Sequence record: NC_007456.1
DNA: 39,704 nucleotides
DNA from: Escherichia phage K1F
Reading direction: 5' to 3' (one strand)
In this document: in pieces, positions 2,566-22,310 of the stretch
Numbering within the stretch: the stretch's first letter is position 1
Layout: every line of letters begins with the position of its first letter
Translations under genes and position numbers: made by a program
The notes under the pieces: generated by a model
Seen by the model: the letters and a program-made list of their open reading frames with translations, nothing else
The model's database searches: none
What the model was told of the DNA's origin: nothing

Positions 2566-5247
2566 ATGAGCGTCATCTCTATTGACAAACACGACTTCTC
2601 TGATGTGTCGAACGCCATTGAGCCGTTTAACCTGCTGGCCGACCACTACGGGCAAGACCTTGCAGTCAAACAGCTTCAGCTTGAGCATGAGGCATACACT
2701 GAAGGCGAGCGACGTTTCATCAAAAACCTTGAGCGACAGACTGAGCGCGGGGAACTGGCAGACAATCAGGTCGCCAAGCCTTTGATGCAGACTCTGGTTC
2801 CTAAGATTGCGCAAGCCGTCAAGGAGTGGCACGAAGGTCCAGACGGGAAGCTGTCAACCTCTCGTCCTAGCGTAGCGTTCACCATGTTGAGCACTGAAGA
2901 GAGGGCCGTTAAAGACCGTTCTCTACGCATCTCCTGCGAGTCTGCTGCTGTCATCATACTGAAGGTCATCCTCTCCAAGCTGGTCAAGCCTGAAGGGATA
3001 CCGATTACACCGATGGCCTCCGCGATAGGTCGCACACTTGAGGACGAAATCCGCTTCGGGCGCATCCGTGACAAGGAGAAGGAGCACTTCAAGAAGGCGA
3101 TAGCTGATAACCTGAACAAGCGAGCTGGTGCATCCTATAAGAAAGCCTACATGCAAGCGGTCGAAGCATCCATGCTGGAGCAAGGCCAACTGGAAGATGC
3201 ATGGGGGACTTGGAGTCCTACAGAGGCTGTCCACGTTGGCATCAAGATGCTTGAGATTGTCATCCAGTCAACACAACTGGTCGAGCTTAAGCGTTACGGT
3301 GCTGGCAATGCAGCGGCTGATGTCGAGATGGTCCACCTGTCAGACTTCTGGGTCAAGAAGATGGCACAACGTGGATTCAGCCTTGCGGGTATCGCACCAG
3401 TCTATCAGCCTTGCGTCGTTCCACCTAAGCCGTGGACGGGTGTCGTAGGCGGTGGTTACTGGGCCAAAGGTCGCAGACCATTACCGCTGATTCGCTTAGG
3501 CTCTAAGTCTGCGGTAGCACGTTACGAAGACGTGTACATGCCTGAAGTCTATGAAGCTGTGAACATCATTCAGAATACACCTTGGAAAGTGAACAAGAAG
3601 GTTCTGGACGTGGTGAACATGGTCGAGAAGCTGAACAACACGCCTATTGATGACATCCCTCAGATGGAACCACTGAAGCCTGAGGCTTATGCGGGTGAGA
3701 CCGAGGAGGAACTCAAGGCATGGAAGAAGGCTGCTGCTGGTATCTATCGCCGCGAGAAGGCCAGACAGTCACGCAGGTTGTCACTGAGCTTTATCGTTAA
3801 CCAAGCGAACAAGTTCTCTCAGTTCAAGGCTATATGGTTCCCGTACAACATGGACTGGCGCGGTCGCGTCTACGCTGTGCCGATGTTCAACCCTCAGGGT
3901 AACGACATGCAGAAGGGTCTCCTGACTCTGGCAGTTGGCAAGCCTATTGGTGCTGACGGTTTCAAATGGCTAAAGGTACACGGTGCAAACTGCGCGGGTG
4001 TCGATAAAGTCACCTTCGAGGAGCGCATCAAGTGGGTGGAAGACAACCACGACAACATCATGGCTGCTGCTAAAGCACCTATGGACAGCATTGAGTGGTG
4101 GGGAAAGTTAGACTCTCCGTTCTGTTTCCTCGCGTTCTGCTTCGAGTATGCTGGCGTAATGCACCATGGCCTGTCTTACTCCTGCTCGCTGCCGATAGCG
4201 TTCGATGGGTCCTGCTCTGGGATTCAGCACTTCAGCGCGATGCTTCGTGACCACATCGGTGGACATGCGGTAAACCTGACGCCTTCCGGTAAAGTCCAAG
4301 ACATCTACCGCATCGTGTCCGACCGCATTGAGGAGGAGCTTAAAGTCCTGCTGGTTAACGGCACGGACAACGAGATGGTAACTCACGAGGACAAGAAAAC
4401 TGGTGAGATTACCGAGCGTCTCAAGCTGGGGACACGAGAGCTGGCCCGTCAGTGGCTGACCTACGGTATGTCACGAAAGGTCACTAAGCGTTCGGTCATG
4501 ACTCTGGCCTACGGGTCGAAAGAGTACGGCTTCGCAGACCAAGTTTACGAGGACATCGTGATGCCAGCGATTGACTCAGGGTCTGGCGCTATGTTCACTG
4601 AACCAAGCCAAGCATCTCGCTTCATGGCTAAGATGATTTGGGAAGCTGTGAGTGTGACCGTAGTTGCTGCGGTTGACGCGATGAAATGGCTTCAGGGTGC
4701 TGCCAAGCTGCTGGCGGCTGAAGTGAAGGACAAGAAGACGGGTGAAATCCTGAAGCCTTGCCTTCCGGTACACTGGGTCACACCTGATGGGTTCCCGGTC
4801 TGGCAGGAATACCGCAAGAAGGATACTACTCGTCTGAACCTGATGTTCTTAGGGTCCTTCAACCTTCAACCTACCGTCAACAAAGGTACGAAGAAAGAGC
4901 TGGATAAGCACAAGCAGGAGTCAGGCATTAGCCCGAACTTCGTCCACTCACAAGATGGTAGCCACCTCCGCAAGACTGTAGTCCATACTCACCGCAAGTA
5001 TGGCGTGATGTCGTTCGCAGTGATTCACGATAGCTTCGGGACCATCCCGGCTGACGCTGAGTATCTGTTCCGTGGGGTCCGTGAGACTATGGTCGAGACC
5101 TACCGCGACAACGATGTGCTGCTTGACTTCTACGAGCAGTTTGAATACCAGCTTCACGAGAGCCAGCGCGATAAGTTGCCAGAGCTTCCGAAGAAAGGTA
5201 AACTGAATATCGAAGACATCTTGTCTTCAGACTTTGCATTCGCTTAA
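2566..5247 (+). CDS. 1: Single-subunit DNA-directed RNA polymerase (T7 gene 1 homolog), 893 aa
   Basis: Collinear similarity to T7 RNAP from N-terminus (KHDFSD...PFN.LADHYG) to C-terminal DFAFA; AAGGA SD. Confidence 0.97.
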   Translation: MSVISIDKHDFSDVSNAIEPFNLLADHYGQDLAVKQLQLEHEAYTEGERRFIKNLERQTERGELADNQVAKPLMQTLVPKIAQAVKEWHEGPDGKLSTSRPSVAFTMLSTEERAVKDRSLRISCESAAVIILKVILSKLVKPEGIPITPMASAIGRTLEDEIRFGRIRDKEKEHFKKAIADNLNKRAGASYKKAYMQAVEASMLEQGQLEDAWGTWSPTEAVHVGIKMLEIVIQSTQLVELKRYGAGNAAADVEMVHLSDFWVKKMAQRGFSLAGIAPVYQPCVVPPKPWTGVVGGGYWAKGRRPLPLIRLGSKSAVARYEDVYMPEVYEAVNIIQNTPWKVNKKVLDVVNMVEKLNNTPIDDIPQMEPLKPEAYAGETEEELKAWKKAAAGIYRREKARQSRRLSLSFIVNQANKFSQFKAIWFPYNMDWRGRVYAVPMFNPQGNDMQKGLLTLAVGKPIGADGFKWLKVHGANCAGVDKVTFEERIKWVEDNHDNIMAAAKAPMDSIEWWGKLDSPFCFLAFCFEYAGVMHHGLSYSCSLPIAFDGSCSGIQHFSAMLRDHIGGHAVNLTPSGKVQDIYRIVSDRIEEELKVLLVNGTDNEMVTHEDKKTGEITERLKLGTRELARQWLTYGMSRKVTKRSVMTLAYGSKEYGFADQVYEDIVMPAIDSGSGAMFTEPSQASRFMAKMIWEAVSVTVVAAVDAMKWLQGAAKLLAAEVKDKKTGEILKPCLPVHWVTPDGFPVWQEYRKKDTTRLNLMFLGSFNLQPTVNKGTKKELDKHKQESGISPNFVHSQDGSHLRKTVVHTHRKYGVMSFAVIHDSFGTIPADAEYLFRGVRETMVETYRDNDVLLDFYEQFEYQLHESQRDKLPELPKKGKLNIEDILSSDFAFA

Positions 5248-7229: not shown

Positions 7230-7487
7230 ATGTCTAAGAACTTAATGTTCAACCGTTATTCTAATACCTTCCACCTGTCCAACAACCCGTTCGCTTGCAT
7301 TAAGCGCAACGAGAAACTTGGCTACTTCGGGAAGGCCGTTAAGCTGTCACCTACAGTCTATGCTCTGATTACTCCTGGAAAAGCTGAAGAGGCTCGCCAG
7401 AAGCGTGAGACAAATGTGCCCGTGGTCTACACTAAGTGGCCTCGCGTTCGGCTGTTTGTTGAGGTCGTAAAGGAGGTGTTCTTATGA
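7230..7487 (+). CDS. Hypothetical protein (85 aa), gene 1.4-1.6 position
   Basis: ORF with AAGGAG SD downstream of promoter 7183. Confidence 0.6.
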   Translation: MSKNLMFNRYSNTFHLSNNPFACIKRNEKLGYFGKAVKLSPTVYALITPGKAEEARQKRETNVPVVYTKWPRVRLFVEVVKEVFL

Positions 7488-7930
7488 CTACTTATGATAA
7501 TATGATTATCAAGCTAATCGATATGAACGATGGTAATCCAGACCATTTATATAACTGTTCCTTCAATTGTGCTGGAGTTCCTTGTAACATCTGCCCCGCT
7601 AAGGATGATGACGATATGACCTTAGGTGAAATCCGAGCGATGGACCCGCGTAAATCTCATCTGAATAAACTTGAGGTAACTCCTACAGATGACCAGCCTT
7701 CCACTGAATCAATCGAAGGTGTCACTAAGCCTTCCCATTACATGCTGTTCGACGACATTGAGGCTATCGAAGTGATTGCCCGTTCAATGACTCGTGAGCA
7801 GTTCAAAGGGTACTGCTTAGGGAACATCCTTAAGTACCGCCTACGCGCTGGTAAGAAAGTCAGAACTTGCTTACTTAGAGAAAGCCAGGGCGAAAGTTGG
7901 ATTCTATGGGGAACTGTACGAGAAACATAA
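7484..7930 (+). CDS. gp1.7-like protein (DUF3310-like motifs); C-terminus appears to continue in +1 frame to 7952
   Basis: Motifs KPSHY...IEAIEV...FKGYCLGNILKYRLRAGKK; after AAGAAAG (7853-7859) the +1 frame reads SELAYLEKARAKVGFYGELYEKHKDKCYDA*. Confidence 0.6.
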   Translation: MTTYDNMIIKLIDMNDGNPDHLYNCSFNCAGVPCNICPAKDDDDMTLGEIRAMDPRKSHLNKLEVTPTDDQPSTESIEGVTKPSHYMLFDDIEAIEVIARSMTREQFKGYCLGNILKYRLRAGKKVRTCLLRESQGESWILWGTVRET

Positions 7931-7941
7931 GGATAAGTGCT

Positions 7942-8169
7942 ATGACGCGTGAAGAACTTCAAGCTGCATCGGCGAAGCGTAGAGCGCAAAGATTTTATCG
8001 TGCATACAAGGCGCTGCGTAAGGGTATGTCGATGTTCAAATTAGGACACAGGGAGTATTGTGATAGCGACCTCCTACCGTTTGCTTATAAGAAGACACCT
8101 AGTCTGATTATCAAGGTAGAGGAGTATGAATATTCTGATGACTGTGTTATGGTGAACCGCTATGCTTAA
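7942..8169 (+). CDS. Hypothetical basic protein (75 aa)
   Basis: ATG 7942 with AAGGATAAG SD; in frame with track ORF 7897..8169. Confidence 0.5.
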   Translation: MTREELQAASAKRRAQRFYRAYKALRKGMSMFKLGHREYCDSDLLPFAYKKTPSLIIKVEEYEYSDDCVMVNRYA

Positions 8170-8266
8170 CGATGTTCTGTACTTCGGCTTAATTTGCGCT
8201 GGAGTAGGCGCGTTACTTCGCTTAATGTATTGGGAGATAGAGGTGGAATATGGTAAAACCAAGTGA
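8162..8266 (+). CDS. Possible small hydrophobic ORF (34 aa)
   Basis: ATG overlapping previous stop; weak SD. Confidence 0.25.
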   Translation: MLNDVLYFGLICAGVGALLRLMYWEIEVEYGKTK

Positions 8267-8560: not shown

Positions 8561-8614
8561 ATGGCTAAAGAGCAACTGAAGACTTTCACCACTCCGGTAG
8601 CTGGCATAGTTTGA
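8561..8614 (+). other. 17-codon leader ORF in frame with SSB gene, ended by TGA at 8612
   Basis: ATG 8561 has strong SD (AGGAGA, 10-nt spacing); same frame as ATG 8624; MAKEQLKTF resembles T7 gp2.5 N-terminus MAKKIFTS. Confidence 0.4.
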
Positions 8615-8623
8615 GCCTTACGC

Positions 8624-9259
8624 ATGGCTGACAAAGCAGACACCAAGTTTAACGAGCGTGGTGAGCATAAGGTTAACCTGACTTTCAGTCTGGATGACCC
8701 GAAGGTCCGTAAGATGATTGATGTCTTACAGAAGATTCACGACGATGCGTATGCGAAAGCACTTGCAGACCACGAGAAGAACCCACCTCAGGTTCAGCGT
8801 GGCAAGAAGCCTATTGAACCACGAGAAGGCGACATGCCGTGGATTGAGAATGGTGACGGTACTGTTACCATGAAGTTTAAATGCTTCGCGTCTTACCTGA
8901 AAGACGGCAAGTCCGAGCCTATCGTATTACGGTTCTACGACACCGATGCTAAACTCATCCGTGACGTCCCGAATATTGGCGCTGGCTCAAAGCTGAAGGT
9001 CAAGTTTAAAGTCCTGCCGTTTAAGTGGAACGCTGCGACTGGTGCAAGCGTTAAGCTCCAACTTGAGTCCTGCCTTCTGGTAGAACTGAAGGAGTGGAAA
9101 GGTGATGGTGCTGGTGGCGATGGTGGCTGGGGTGACGATGAAGACCTCGGTACTGGCTACAAAGCGTCAACCGATGGTGACTTCGGGTCTGATGACTTCG
9201 GTGACGATGGTTCCGAAGGTGGTGACGACTCCAACTCTGGTGGCGATTACGACTTCTAA
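8624..9259 (+). CDS. 2.5: Single-stranded DNA-binding protein (T7 gp2.5 homolog) with acidic C-terminal tail ending DYDF
   Basis: KVNLT...HEKNPP...RGKKPIEPREGDMPW...NGDGT...KFKCFASY...VKLQLESCLLVEL and acidic tail ...GGDYDF as in T7 (...DGDF). Confidence 0.9.
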   Translation: MADKADTKFNERGEHKVNLTFSLDDPKVRKMIDVLQKIHDDAYAKALADHEKNPPQVQRGKKPIEPREGDMPWIENGDGTVTMKFKCFASYLKDGKSEPIVLRFYDTDAKLIRDVPNIGAGSKLKVKFKVLPFKWNAATGASVKLQLESCLLVELKEWKGDGAGGDGGWGDDEDLGTGYKASTDGDFGSDDFGDDGSEGGDDSNSGGDYDF

Positions 9260-10178: not shown

Positions 10179-10630
10179 GTAAGGTGCAATTCAACCCACG
10201 GTCCCGGACTGACGCTATCTTCGTTCACTGTTCGGCTACCAAGCCAGAGATGGACATCGGGGTAGAGACCATCCGTATGTGGCACAAGCAGCAGGCTTGG
10301 CTGGACGTAGGCTACCACTTTATCATCAAGCGTGATGGTACTGTGGAAGAGGGTCGCCCGGTAAATGTCGTAGGGTCACACGTTAAGGATTGGAACTCCC
10401 GGTCTGTAGGCGTCTGCCTTGTAGGTGGAATCAACGCTAAGGGTCAGTTTGAAGCTAACTTCACTCCAGCCCAGATGAACTCCCTGCGCAACAAGCTGGA
10501 TGACCTGAAGGTCATGTATCCTCAGGCAGAGATAAGAGCACACCATGACGTAGCACCAAAGGCGTGTCCAAGTTTCGACTTACAGCGCTGGCTGTCTACC
10601 AATGAACTGGTCACTTCCGACCGTGGTTAA
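10172..10630 (+). CDS. 3.5: N-acetylmuramoyl-L-alanine amidase / T7 lysozyme homolog (gene 3.5)
   Basis: VQF..R...DAIFVHCSATKP...WH..Q.WLDVGYHFIIKRDGTVE.GR...VGSH.KG.N..S.GVCLVGGI...AHHDVAPKACPSFDL.RW...ELVTSDRG. Confidence 0.93.
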   Translation: MVSKVQFNPRSRTDAIFVHCSATKPEMDIGVETIRMWHKQQAWLDVGYHFIIKRDGTVEEGRPVNVVGSHVKDWNSRSVGVCLVGGINAKGQFEANFTPAQMNSLRNKLDDLKVMYPQAEIRAHHDVAPKACPSFDLQRWLSTNELVTSDRG

Positions 10631-10935: not shown

Positions 10936-12856
<1,921 letters not shown>

Positions 12857-12920: not shown

Positions 12921-14936
12921 ATGTTTGACCTTAAGGATATTTGGGGTTCGGACATCGAGACCAACGGTCTCCTTGACACCGTGTCCCAGTTCCATTGTGG
13001 GGTCCTGATTAATGCCGAGTCGAATGAGACCCTTAAGTATGGGGTAGCGCCGATGGTCGGTATCGTCGGTGGCTTCAAAGAGTATGTACAGAAGGTGGAA
13101 GAAATTGCTGCAACGCCTACGGGTATGCTGGTCTTCCATAACGGTATCAACTATGACGTCCCGGCTATAGACAAGCTGAAGCGTTTGTACTTTGGGAAAC
13201 GATTTAACTTCCCGAAACACAAGATGATTGATACCTTGGTGCTGGGCCGCTTGATGTATCCCAACATTAAGTTCTCAGACATGGGAGCGGTGAAAGCTGG
13301 TCGTCTGCCACCTAAGATGATGGGACGCCAGTCTCTTGAGGCTTGGGGCTATCGTCTCGGTGAGATGAAAGGTGAATACAAACACGATTACGTTGCCAAA
13401 TGCAAGGCTGAAGGTATCGAATATAAGGCTGGGGACGAATGGTTGTTCCCGTCTCAGGAGATGCTGGACTATAACGTTCAAGACGTTGTGGTCACACTGG
13501 CGTTGTTCAAGAAGTTCCTGACTGACAAGTATTACTTCCAGTCTGAACAGTTCGCTTTCGAACAGATTTATGCGTTGCGTCTGGAACATGATGCTGCGTG
13601 GACCTGTGCTAAGATGGAACGTAACGGCTATCCAATGAACACAGAGATGGTCGAAGGCTTATATCGTGAACTCACCGTCAAACGTGCAGAGTTGCTGGAC
13701 AAGCTGCGTTCGACTTTCGGTAGCTGGTACGCACCAAAGGGAGGCAAGGAGTTCTTCAGGCATCCACGGACAGGTAAGGACCTTCCGAAGTATCCGAGGG
13801 TCGTGTATCCTAAGGTTGGTGGCATCTTTAAGAAGCCGAAGAACAAAGCTCAACGATTAGGTCTTGAACCTTGTGAACGCGATACGCGAGACACGATGGA
13901 GGGAGCACCATTCACACCTATCACTTACGTTGAGTTTAATCCGGGAAGCGGGGACCACTTAGCGAAAGTTCTGATGGAGCGTGGCTGGGAGCCTGTGGAC
14001 TTCACTGACACCGGGAAACCTGTAGTCGATGACGAGACGTTAGAACATGTTAAGTTACCAGACGCAGAGGCTCAGGCTTGCGTAGAGCTGGTCCGTGAGT
14101 ATCTGGTAGTCCAGAAGCGCATAGGTCAGGCTGCTGAAGGTAAGAACGCATGGTTGAAACTTGTAGGGCCAGACGGACGTATGCACGGTTCAATCAACCC
14201 ATGTGGTGCAGTAACCGGACGTGCTACCCATAGTTCACCAAACATGGCTCAGGTCCCGGCTAACGGTGCTCCGTATGGTGAGACTTGCCGTGGTGCTTTC
14301 GGTGCAGCTTGGAACAAGACGGATGGTAAGCCAGACCCTTGGATTCAAGTGGGTGTGGATGCTTCAGGTCTTGAGCTTCGTTGTCTGGGGAACCGAGCGG
14401 CTCCGTTTGATGGTGGTGCCTATGCGAAGACTGTGGTAGAAGGTGACATCCACTGGGCCAACGCAGTAAACGCTGGGTTAGCACCTAACGTCCCACGCGA
14501 TAAGTCGAACCACGACCATGATGCTTTCCGTAATAACGCTAAGACGTTCATCTATGCGTTCCTGTATGGTGCAGGGGCCGCTAAGATTGGACTGATAGTA
14601 GGCGGTGGTAAGAAGGAAGGTTCAGCTCTCATGAAGAAATTCATTGAGGGTACACCAGCCATCAAAGACCTCAGGGAAGCTGTGAGTAATACGTTAATCT
14701 CTGAGTCCAAATGGGTAGACGGTGAGAATATCGTGAAGTGGAAACGCCGCTGGCTTAAAGGCTTGGATGGTCGACGCATCCACATCCGGTCTCCACACTC
14801 AGCACTTAACGCCTTACTTCAAGGTGATGGTGCGGTAGTCTGTAAGCACTGGATTGTTGAGACAGAACGTATGCTCGAAGAGGCCGGGTATGTCCACGGC
14901 TGGGAAGGAGACTTCGCGTACATGGCATGGGTGCAT
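12921..14936 (+). CDS. 5: DNA polymerase (T7 gene 5 homolog), exon 1 (672 codons, ends ...YMAWVH)
   Basis: 3'-5' exo motif DIETNGL; ...FHNG.NYDVPA...EAWGYRLGEMKGEYK...DYNVQDVVVT...; ORF track stops at TAA 14937-14939, the first intron codon. Confidence 0.9.
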
Positions 14937-15534
14937 TAACATCATGGTGCACATTAAATCTGGTGAACTCGGTGAACTCCTAATGGGACAATACCGAGCC
15001 AAGCCATAGGGAGGATGTATGAGAGGCAAGAAGTTAATTCTTGAGGCCACTGAGACTGGCTGCATAATCCCTACGTCACATAAATTGAATCAGGATGGAT
15101 ACTTCCGAAAGAGGACTAACGGTGTCCTTGAGATGTATCATAGAACTGTATGGATTAAAGCTAATGGTCCAATACCTGAAGGTTTCGAAGTAGACCACAA
15201 GTGTCGTAATAGAGCTTGTTGCAACGTCGAACATCTACAAGTATTAGACCGTGACTCACACTTAGTCAAGACCAACCAAGAGCGATACGCTGCTAGGAAG
15301 CTAGAAGCACGAGACTACTGGGTAGAGACTGGGTGTACAGGAACGAAGTTAGCCGAAGTATTCAATGTGTCGTTCTCAGCCGCCTGTGGGTGGATTAGAG
15401 AGTGGAAGGCGTAGAGACTATCCGAAAGGAGTAGGGCCGTGGGTGAGATTCCCACGTAACCCGAAGCGCCAGACAGTCACCTCAAAGACTGATGATATAG
15501 TCCGACACTTCCAGTAATGGGAGAATACAGAAAG
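14937..15534 (+). mobile_element. Group I-type intron (598 bp) in DNA polymerase gene, carrying an HNH endonuclease ORF
   Basis: Exon 1 ends in U (14936), intron ends in G (15534); P1-like pairing of exon GUGCAU (14931-14936) with GUGCAC (14947-14952); exons join in frame to give WVH|DELQIACRT. Confidence 0.7.
15019..15414 (+). CDS. HNH homing endonuclease (131 aa) within the intron
   Basis: HNH motif EVDHKCRNRACCNVEHLQV; strong SD AGGGAGGA; free-standing ORF. Confidence 0.85.
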   Translation: MRGKKLILEATETGCIIPTSHKLNQDGYFRKRTNGVLEMYHRTVWIKANGPIPEGFEVDHKCRNRACCNVEHLQVLDRDSHLVKTNQERYAARKLEARDYWVETGCTGTKLAEVFNVSFSAACGWIREWKA

Positions 15535-15690
15535 GATGAGTTACAGATTGCTTGTCGTACTCAAGAAATAGCAGAACGTACAGTCGAAATTGCGCAGCTA
15601 GCTATGCGTAAGGTGGGTGAGTTCTATAACTTTAAATGTGTCCTTGATACCGAAGGTAAGATTGGACCAACTTGGAAGGAGTGTCACTAA
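15535..15690 (+). CDS. 5: DNA polymerase exon 2 (51 codons: DELQIACRTQEIAERTVEIAQLAMRKVGEFYNFKCVLDTEGKIGPTWKECH)
   Basis: Matches remembered T7 DNA polymerase C-terminus (...VGCRTEEIAQ...WNFRCLLDTEGKMGPNWAICH); no SD before in-frame ATG 15517. Confidence 0.75.
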   Translation, partial: DELQIACRTQEIAERTVEIAQLAMRKVGEFYNFKCVLDTEGKIGPTWKECH

Positions 15691-22179: not shown

Positions 22180-22310
22180 GCACTTTTAGCCAACCTAACG
22201 TCGCTACAGTAGCGGCTGCACCTGAAGAGGAGACTCTAACTCCTCAACAGAAAGCTGCGCGTACTCGTGCTGCGAACAGGGCCGATAAACTGGCTGAGTC
22301 CAACAACTAA
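21136..22310 (+). CDS. 10: Minor capsid protein 10B by predicted -1 frameshift at GGTTTTC (22158-22164), about 391 aa
   Basis: Heptamer G GTT TTC in 0 frame near 10A end; -1 frame stays open 48 codons (QPSGVSTFSQPNVATVAAAPEEETLTPQQKAARTRAANRADKLAESNN) to TAA 22308-22310, just before Tphi. Confidence 0.6.

Follow-up and report, generated by a model that had tools for sequence, protein, structure and literature searches.

An extra adenine that frameshifts gene 1.7 in a deposited genome of Escherichia phage K1F is very probably a base-calling error

In the deposited genome of Escherichia phage K1F (NC_007456.1; 39,704 nt, analyzed here as a single window at its full length), the 3' end of gene 1.7 is thrown out of frame by one additional A. 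This base is very probably a base-calling error in the deposited record, the gene itself being an ordinary gp1.7 ortholog that involves no recoding. As to the cause, we infer an error, either of base calling or of assembly, and not a mutation of the stock that was sequenced; sequencing error is favored over mutation because the extra A is only one of 16 clustered record-specific differences, which are dominated by indels and break essential genes. According to the proposed scenario, a single spurious A, by which AAGAAG was read as AAGAAAG (7856–7858), would shift the last 30 codons into the wrong frame, so that the annotated protein would close with 23 meaningless residues replacing the conserved SELAYLEK...HKDKCYDA tail. 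The actual phage most likely makes an intact 155-aa gp1.7, with no recoding required.

In the 0 frame, gene 1.7 occupies positions 7484..7930 of the plus strand and appears in the ORF listing as a 148-aa nucleotide kinase of the DUF3310/T7 gp1.7-like type, the product of which finishes with ...RAGKKVRTCLLRESQGESWILWGTVRET. From position 7850 (to 7864 and on), the letters read GGT AAG AAA GTC AGA ACT TGC..., and the ORF departs from the family frame immediately after AAG AAA (7853–7858), leaving a 23-aa nonsense tail after ...RAGKK. When G7859 is skipped, translation of 7860–7952 yields SELAYLEKARAKVGFYGELYEKHKDKCYDA followed by a stop codon; this plus-strand segment (7860..7952, here in the +1 frame) is the true C-terminal coding part of gene 1.7 and aligns with residues 168–195 of T7 gp1.7. 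The first-pass annotation had described the gene as frameshifted near its 3' end at AAGAAAG, and the letters, the ORF, and the translations agree with this description to the base. The lesion consists of one additional A in the AAA run at 7856..7858 (plus strand), where all other independent sequences have AAGAAG, and its placement inside the run is arbitrary. The same local cluster includes three record-specific substitutions within 42 nt 3' of the lesion (C7885, G7888, and T7897 on the plus strand, with A, T, and C, respectively, in relatives), which alter the restored tail by changing D to A, M to R, and A to V. Exact-sequence matching identified the 148-aa product as AAZ72972.1/YP_338098.1 from the 39,704-bp K1F record and the 155-aa version as CAJ29353.1 from AM084414, the second K1F record. 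The former record we take to be DQ111067 (Scholl and Merril, 2005). The K1F stock of the depositing laboratory was subsequently distributed (PMC6277420).

The restored reading frame also fits the surrounding genes. Upstream, gene 1.6 (7230..7487, plus strand, 85 aa) overlaps the start of gene 1.7 by 4 nt. Downstream, the ATG of the next gene, annotated in AM084414 as gp1.75 (7942..8169, plus strand), overlaps the restored stop codon of gene 1.7 (ATGACGCGTGA), and the same overlap is annotated in phages Yanou, Bas104, JeanTinguely, and AV103. Such an overlap between the stop codon of gene 1.7 and the start codon of its neighbor is the usual coupled arrangement of the T7 type. The order ligase - 1.6 - 1.7 - 1.8 - 2 - 2.5 is kept as in T7-group phages.

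Comparison with T7 gp1.7 clearly separates the two frames. The repaired 155-aa protein shares 80% identity with T7 gp1.7 (117 of 147 aa) in an alignment that includes the tail and extends to residue 195 of 196, whereas pairwise alignment of the 0-frame protein is meaningful only as far as KK. Colinearity that takes in the ...KKSELAYLEK...HKDKCY tail is thus present only once the extra A is removed. The resemblance of the +1 tail to the C-terminus of T7 gp1.7, which the first-pass annotation had put forward, was confirmed when both frames were aligned with the T7 protein as it had proposed: the +1 tail corresponds to the conserved C-terminus and the 0-frame tail does not. The DUF3310-like motifs that it had noted in the ORF starting at 7484 were likewise recognized by the PF11753 profile (60 positions; gathering cut-off, 24 bits), with a score of 69.8 bits for the 0-frame protein and 76.1 bits after the repair, the coverage of the profile rising from positions 1–46 to positions 1–56.

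As judged from these sequence comparisons, K1F gene 1.7 belongs to the T7 gp1.7/DUF3310 family of nucleotide kinases and is an ordinary representative of it. It resembles the nucleoside-monophosphate (dTMP/dGMP) kinase gp1.7 of T7 in sequence (80% identity), in its Pfam match, and in gene position, and it differs in length (155 aa vs. 196 aa in T7), the alignment beginning at T7 residue 49; the last 30 codons being out of frame is a difference confined to the deposited K1F record. The K1F start codon (7484) corresponds approximately to residue 43 of T7 gp1.7, and the K1F protein lacks the N-terminal Cys-rich segment of its T7 counterpart. T7 gp1.7 is known to have dTMP/dGMP kinase activity (cited in PMC11897194), whereas for K1F gp1.7 the kinase function is predicted.

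A second, independent sequence of the same isolate does not contain the extra A. At the position of the lesion, AM084414 (NC_007636) reads AAG-AAG and encodes an intact gp1.7 of 155 aa, annotated at 7483..7950. Its gp1.7 (CAJ29353.1) represents the same gene of the same phage, differing in the lack of the extra A and in the presence of A, T, and C at the three substituted positions, which gives ...KKSELAYLEKDMAKAGFYGELYEKHKDKCYDA. Over the interval 7230–8170 the two K1F records are 99.6% identical and differ at four positions. In total, 12 other sequences encode the region in a single frame with GGTAAGAAGTC, namely AM084414, seven T7-like phages (T7, Yanou, Bas104, JeanTinguely, AV103, SYGE1, and PVN09), and four Kayfunavirus genomes (PhiNW-B1, MT1B1P3, PDP21P1, and AN24P4). 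All seven T7-like phages have the AM084414 bases at 7885, 7888, and 7897; the four Kayfunavirus genomes diverge at some of these positions, and none of them has the C/G/T combination.

Larger sequence collections gave the same picture. The in-frame DNA pattern was found in 49 IMG/VR contigs, while the extra-A pattern was found in no IMG/VR contig and had no match among 241 million metagenome records. A protein search with a 42-aa query spanning the junction and the 0-frame tail retrieved two DUF3310 proteins only, both continuing in the family frame (...AGKKS/G...); this search is a weak negative, because the parent protein of the query was itself not recovered, and the DNA pattern scans are the stronger test for homologs of the 0-frame tail. 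Homologs ending like the 0-frame product, which the first-pass annotation had named as the observation that would count against it, were therefore found neither in the DNA scans of IMG/VR and the metagenomes nor in the weaker protein search.

Whole-genome alignment of the deposited record with AM084414 (39,699 bp) revealed 16 differences in approximately 39.7 kb, of which nine are single-base indels and seven are substitutions. The indels comprise seven insertions in the deposited record, each duplicating an adjacent base, and two deletions, which compensate for insertions located 14 and 20 nt upstream. Six of the seven substitutions fall into two tight clusters. Clustering as tight as that of the 16 differences, with seven neighbor gaps no longer than 45 nt, did not arise in any of 200,000 random placements. 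Every aligned independent relative has the AM084414 state at all 16 positions, a 16:0 asymmetry that is based on three to five Kayfunavirus genomes per cluster (Kaz2018 excluded) and, for the gene 1.7 cluster, also on the seven T7-like phages; therefore, all of the change lies on the side of the deposited record. Across the deposited record, there is an excess of indels that are derived and clustered, extend homopolymers, and disrupt conserved ORFs. The earlier proposal that the insertion of one base into a purine run is the simplest explanation is upheld by the second K1F record and by every independent relative, none of which has the extra base; between sequencing error and real mutation, a choice that the proposal had left open, the 16 clustered, indel-dominated, gene-breaking differences favor sequencing error. 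No published comparison of the two K1F records turned up in a literature search, and a search for resequenced K1F returned nothing useful.

Several of these differences and their distribution deserve a separate description. All 16 are located in the left 22.3 kb of the genome (1–22285, the left 56%), with a probability of about 1e-4 under a uniform distribution, which suggests that sequencing quality or strategy differed between the early/middle and the late regions. At 10294–10297, within the lysozyme gene 3.5, the deposited record has GGCT for AGGC, by which a conserved Gly is changed to Ala (WHKQQGW to WHKQQAW), and at 22285, downstream of gene 10A, it has a record-specific A for C. The relatives have the AM084414 bases at both locations.

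Six genes other than gene 1.7 are damaged by record-specific indels. In gene 2.5 (about 8561..9259), one T has been added at 8610 and one A is absent at 8630, so that the intervening 20 nt are read out of frame and include a stop codon; the single-stranded DNA-binding protein (SSB) gp2.5 is 232 aa long in AM084414 and stops after 17 aa in the deposited record, and because of this stop the ORF listing gives only a 211-aa ORF from 8624. All relatives have the AM084414 state at both indel sites. In the helicase-primase gene 4 (10939..12699), an extra G at 12631 removes the ...WENNDF terminus and adds a 20-aa extension, whereas AM084414 and the relatives retain the T7-like acidic, Phe-terminated end of gp4. 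The remaining indels, at 2243/2257, 5698, 10111, and 15898, leave gp0.38 and gp1.15 with only 12 and 17 aa, respectively, before a stop, scramble the tail of gp3.2, and cut gp5.5 to 82 aa (vs. 96 aa). In T7, gp2.5 is an essential protein, and both it and gp4 have functional tails that are acidic and end in Phe; therefore, a viable phage carrying all of these lesions is implausible.

A separate observation concerns the DNA polymerase gene 5 (about 12921–15690), which is annotated as a two-piece join in both related records. A homing-endonuclease-like ORF, 5.3 (about 15019–15414), is situated in the gap, and the arrangement looks like an insertion of the intron or intein type.

Only one other record contains the extra A, namely MN510331 (vB_EcoP_PR_Kaz2018), which also shares the three nearby substitutions and annotates the same ORF at 7484..7930. 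MN510331 has the same length as the deposited K1F record and aligns with it with no indels and 1,875 mismatches (4.7%), whereas the BLAST alignments of genuine relatives with comparable identity are split into 8 to 16 pieces. The two records are identical over 7700–7905, whereas real Kayfunavirus relatives show only 72–80% identity to K1F across the aligned 3' region of gene 1.7; at 7908–7935, MN510331 has exactly the sequence of MT1B1P3. At 10294–10297 it has the bases of the relatives, yet all indels of the deposited K1F record are retained. Genome Detective is a pipeline that places contigs on a RefSeq genome. Its use is reported in the announcement of Kaz2018 (PMC6895311). Taken by its sequence, MN510331 is a chimeric consensus, written in the coordinates of the K1F record, with inherited reference errors; it looks copied from the reference in places where the real phage diverges and resembles MT1B1P3 in the rest. 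Because this consensus was laid onto those coordinates, it provides no independent evidence for the extra A, and we rejected it as a confirmation on account of the absence of indels at 4.7% divergence, the mixture of reference and MT1B1P3-like sequence, and the retained indels.

Among the alternatives, a real +1 insertion of A in the sequenced K1F stock, with the resulting truncated or scrambled C-terminus of gp1.7 being tolerated by a laboratory lineage, is unlikely, although it fares best. A frameshift in this gene could be tolerable, given that T7 does not need gp1.7 under standard conditions, and the greater part of the DUF3310 core (profile positions 1–46 of 60) precedes the lesion. Loss of the gene might conceivably even be selected, as T7 gp1.7 is reported to be an activator of the defence protein Avs5 (PMC11897194). 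Against this explanation, the lesion is inseparable from 15 other differences that bear the hallmarks of base-calling errors and include paired compensating indels, the stop codon in the essential gp2.5, and the damage to the C-terminus of gp4; furthermore, AM084414 is free of all 16 differences, and the extra A occurs in no independent sequence. Were the extra A real, the C-terminal helix of gp1.7 in this lineage would be replaced by 23 unrelated residues, a change either tolerated or selected (e.g., as an escape from Avs5), and traces of the full-length protein might come from tRNA-Lys slipping spontaneously by +1 on AAA-G; this complete scenario we consider quite improbable.

The converse possibility, that AM084414 is in error and the deposited 39,704-bp record is the true K1F sequence, is supported only by the disagreement between the two records. 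It is highly improbable in view of the 16:0 asymmetry described above and of the intact, homolog-like proteins encoded by the AM084414 versions, and it was rejected, as the relatives all side with AM084414.

The least probable alternative is a programmed +1 ribosomal frameshift on AAG-AAA-G, in which tRNA-Lys would pair again, shifting from AAA to AAG, and full-length gp1.7 would be produced from the sequence as deposited. Such re-pairing is chemically possible for tRNA-Lys(UUU), and phages of the T7 group are known to frameshift in gene 10. The similarity to the programmed frameshifts of this group (e.g., gene 10A/10B) is superficial, however, consisting in a gene that continues in another frame: the established frameshifts are conserved in relatives and yield two products, whereas the shift in K1F gene 1.7 is confined to one database record and occurs in no relative. 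The independent relatives, as well as AM084414, encode gp1.7 in a single frame, so that neither the site nor the need for a shift is conserved. A stimulatory context was not observed either. The codon that follows the shift site is GTC, an ordinary sense codon that is neither a stop nor hungry; the downstream RNA fold (z = -0.31) is no better than that of shuffled sequence; and the local sequence upstream of AAG AAA contains no SD-like AGGGGG. In addition, AAGAAAG occurs 13 times on the plus strand, including positions within annotated genes 1, 4, and 10, where shifting would be harmful. The first-pass annotation had also regarded a programmed shift as less likely, and the unconserved site, the non-stimulatory context, and the commonness of the heptamer bear this out. 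With no conservation, no stimulatory context, and the same heptamer within essential genes, programmed frameshifting is extremely improbable and was rejected.

As a separate observation on this heptamer, its 13 sites in the window (e.g., at 3139, 11077, and 21634), all of them on the plus strand, exceed the 5.9 expected from shuffled sequences. This excess probably reflects Lys-rich coding bias.

With a base-calling error as the preferred explanation, the practical consequences concern annotation. Proteins of the deposited K1F record such as YP_338098.1 (named 'nucleotide kinase' at NCBI) have a wrong gp1.7 C-terminus, and following the same pattern, wrong products are given for gp0.38, gp1.15, gp2.5, gp3.2, gp4, and gp5.5. 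The errors have already propagated to at least one later record, MN510331. For the engineering of K1F, or for its use as a reference, AM084414/NC_007636 is preferable at the affected sites, or else these sites should be resequenced. The frameshift in gene 1.7 is very probably not a biological feature of the phage; its biological importance is small, and its value lies in the warning that it provides for the annotation of gene 1.7 and of six other K1F genes.
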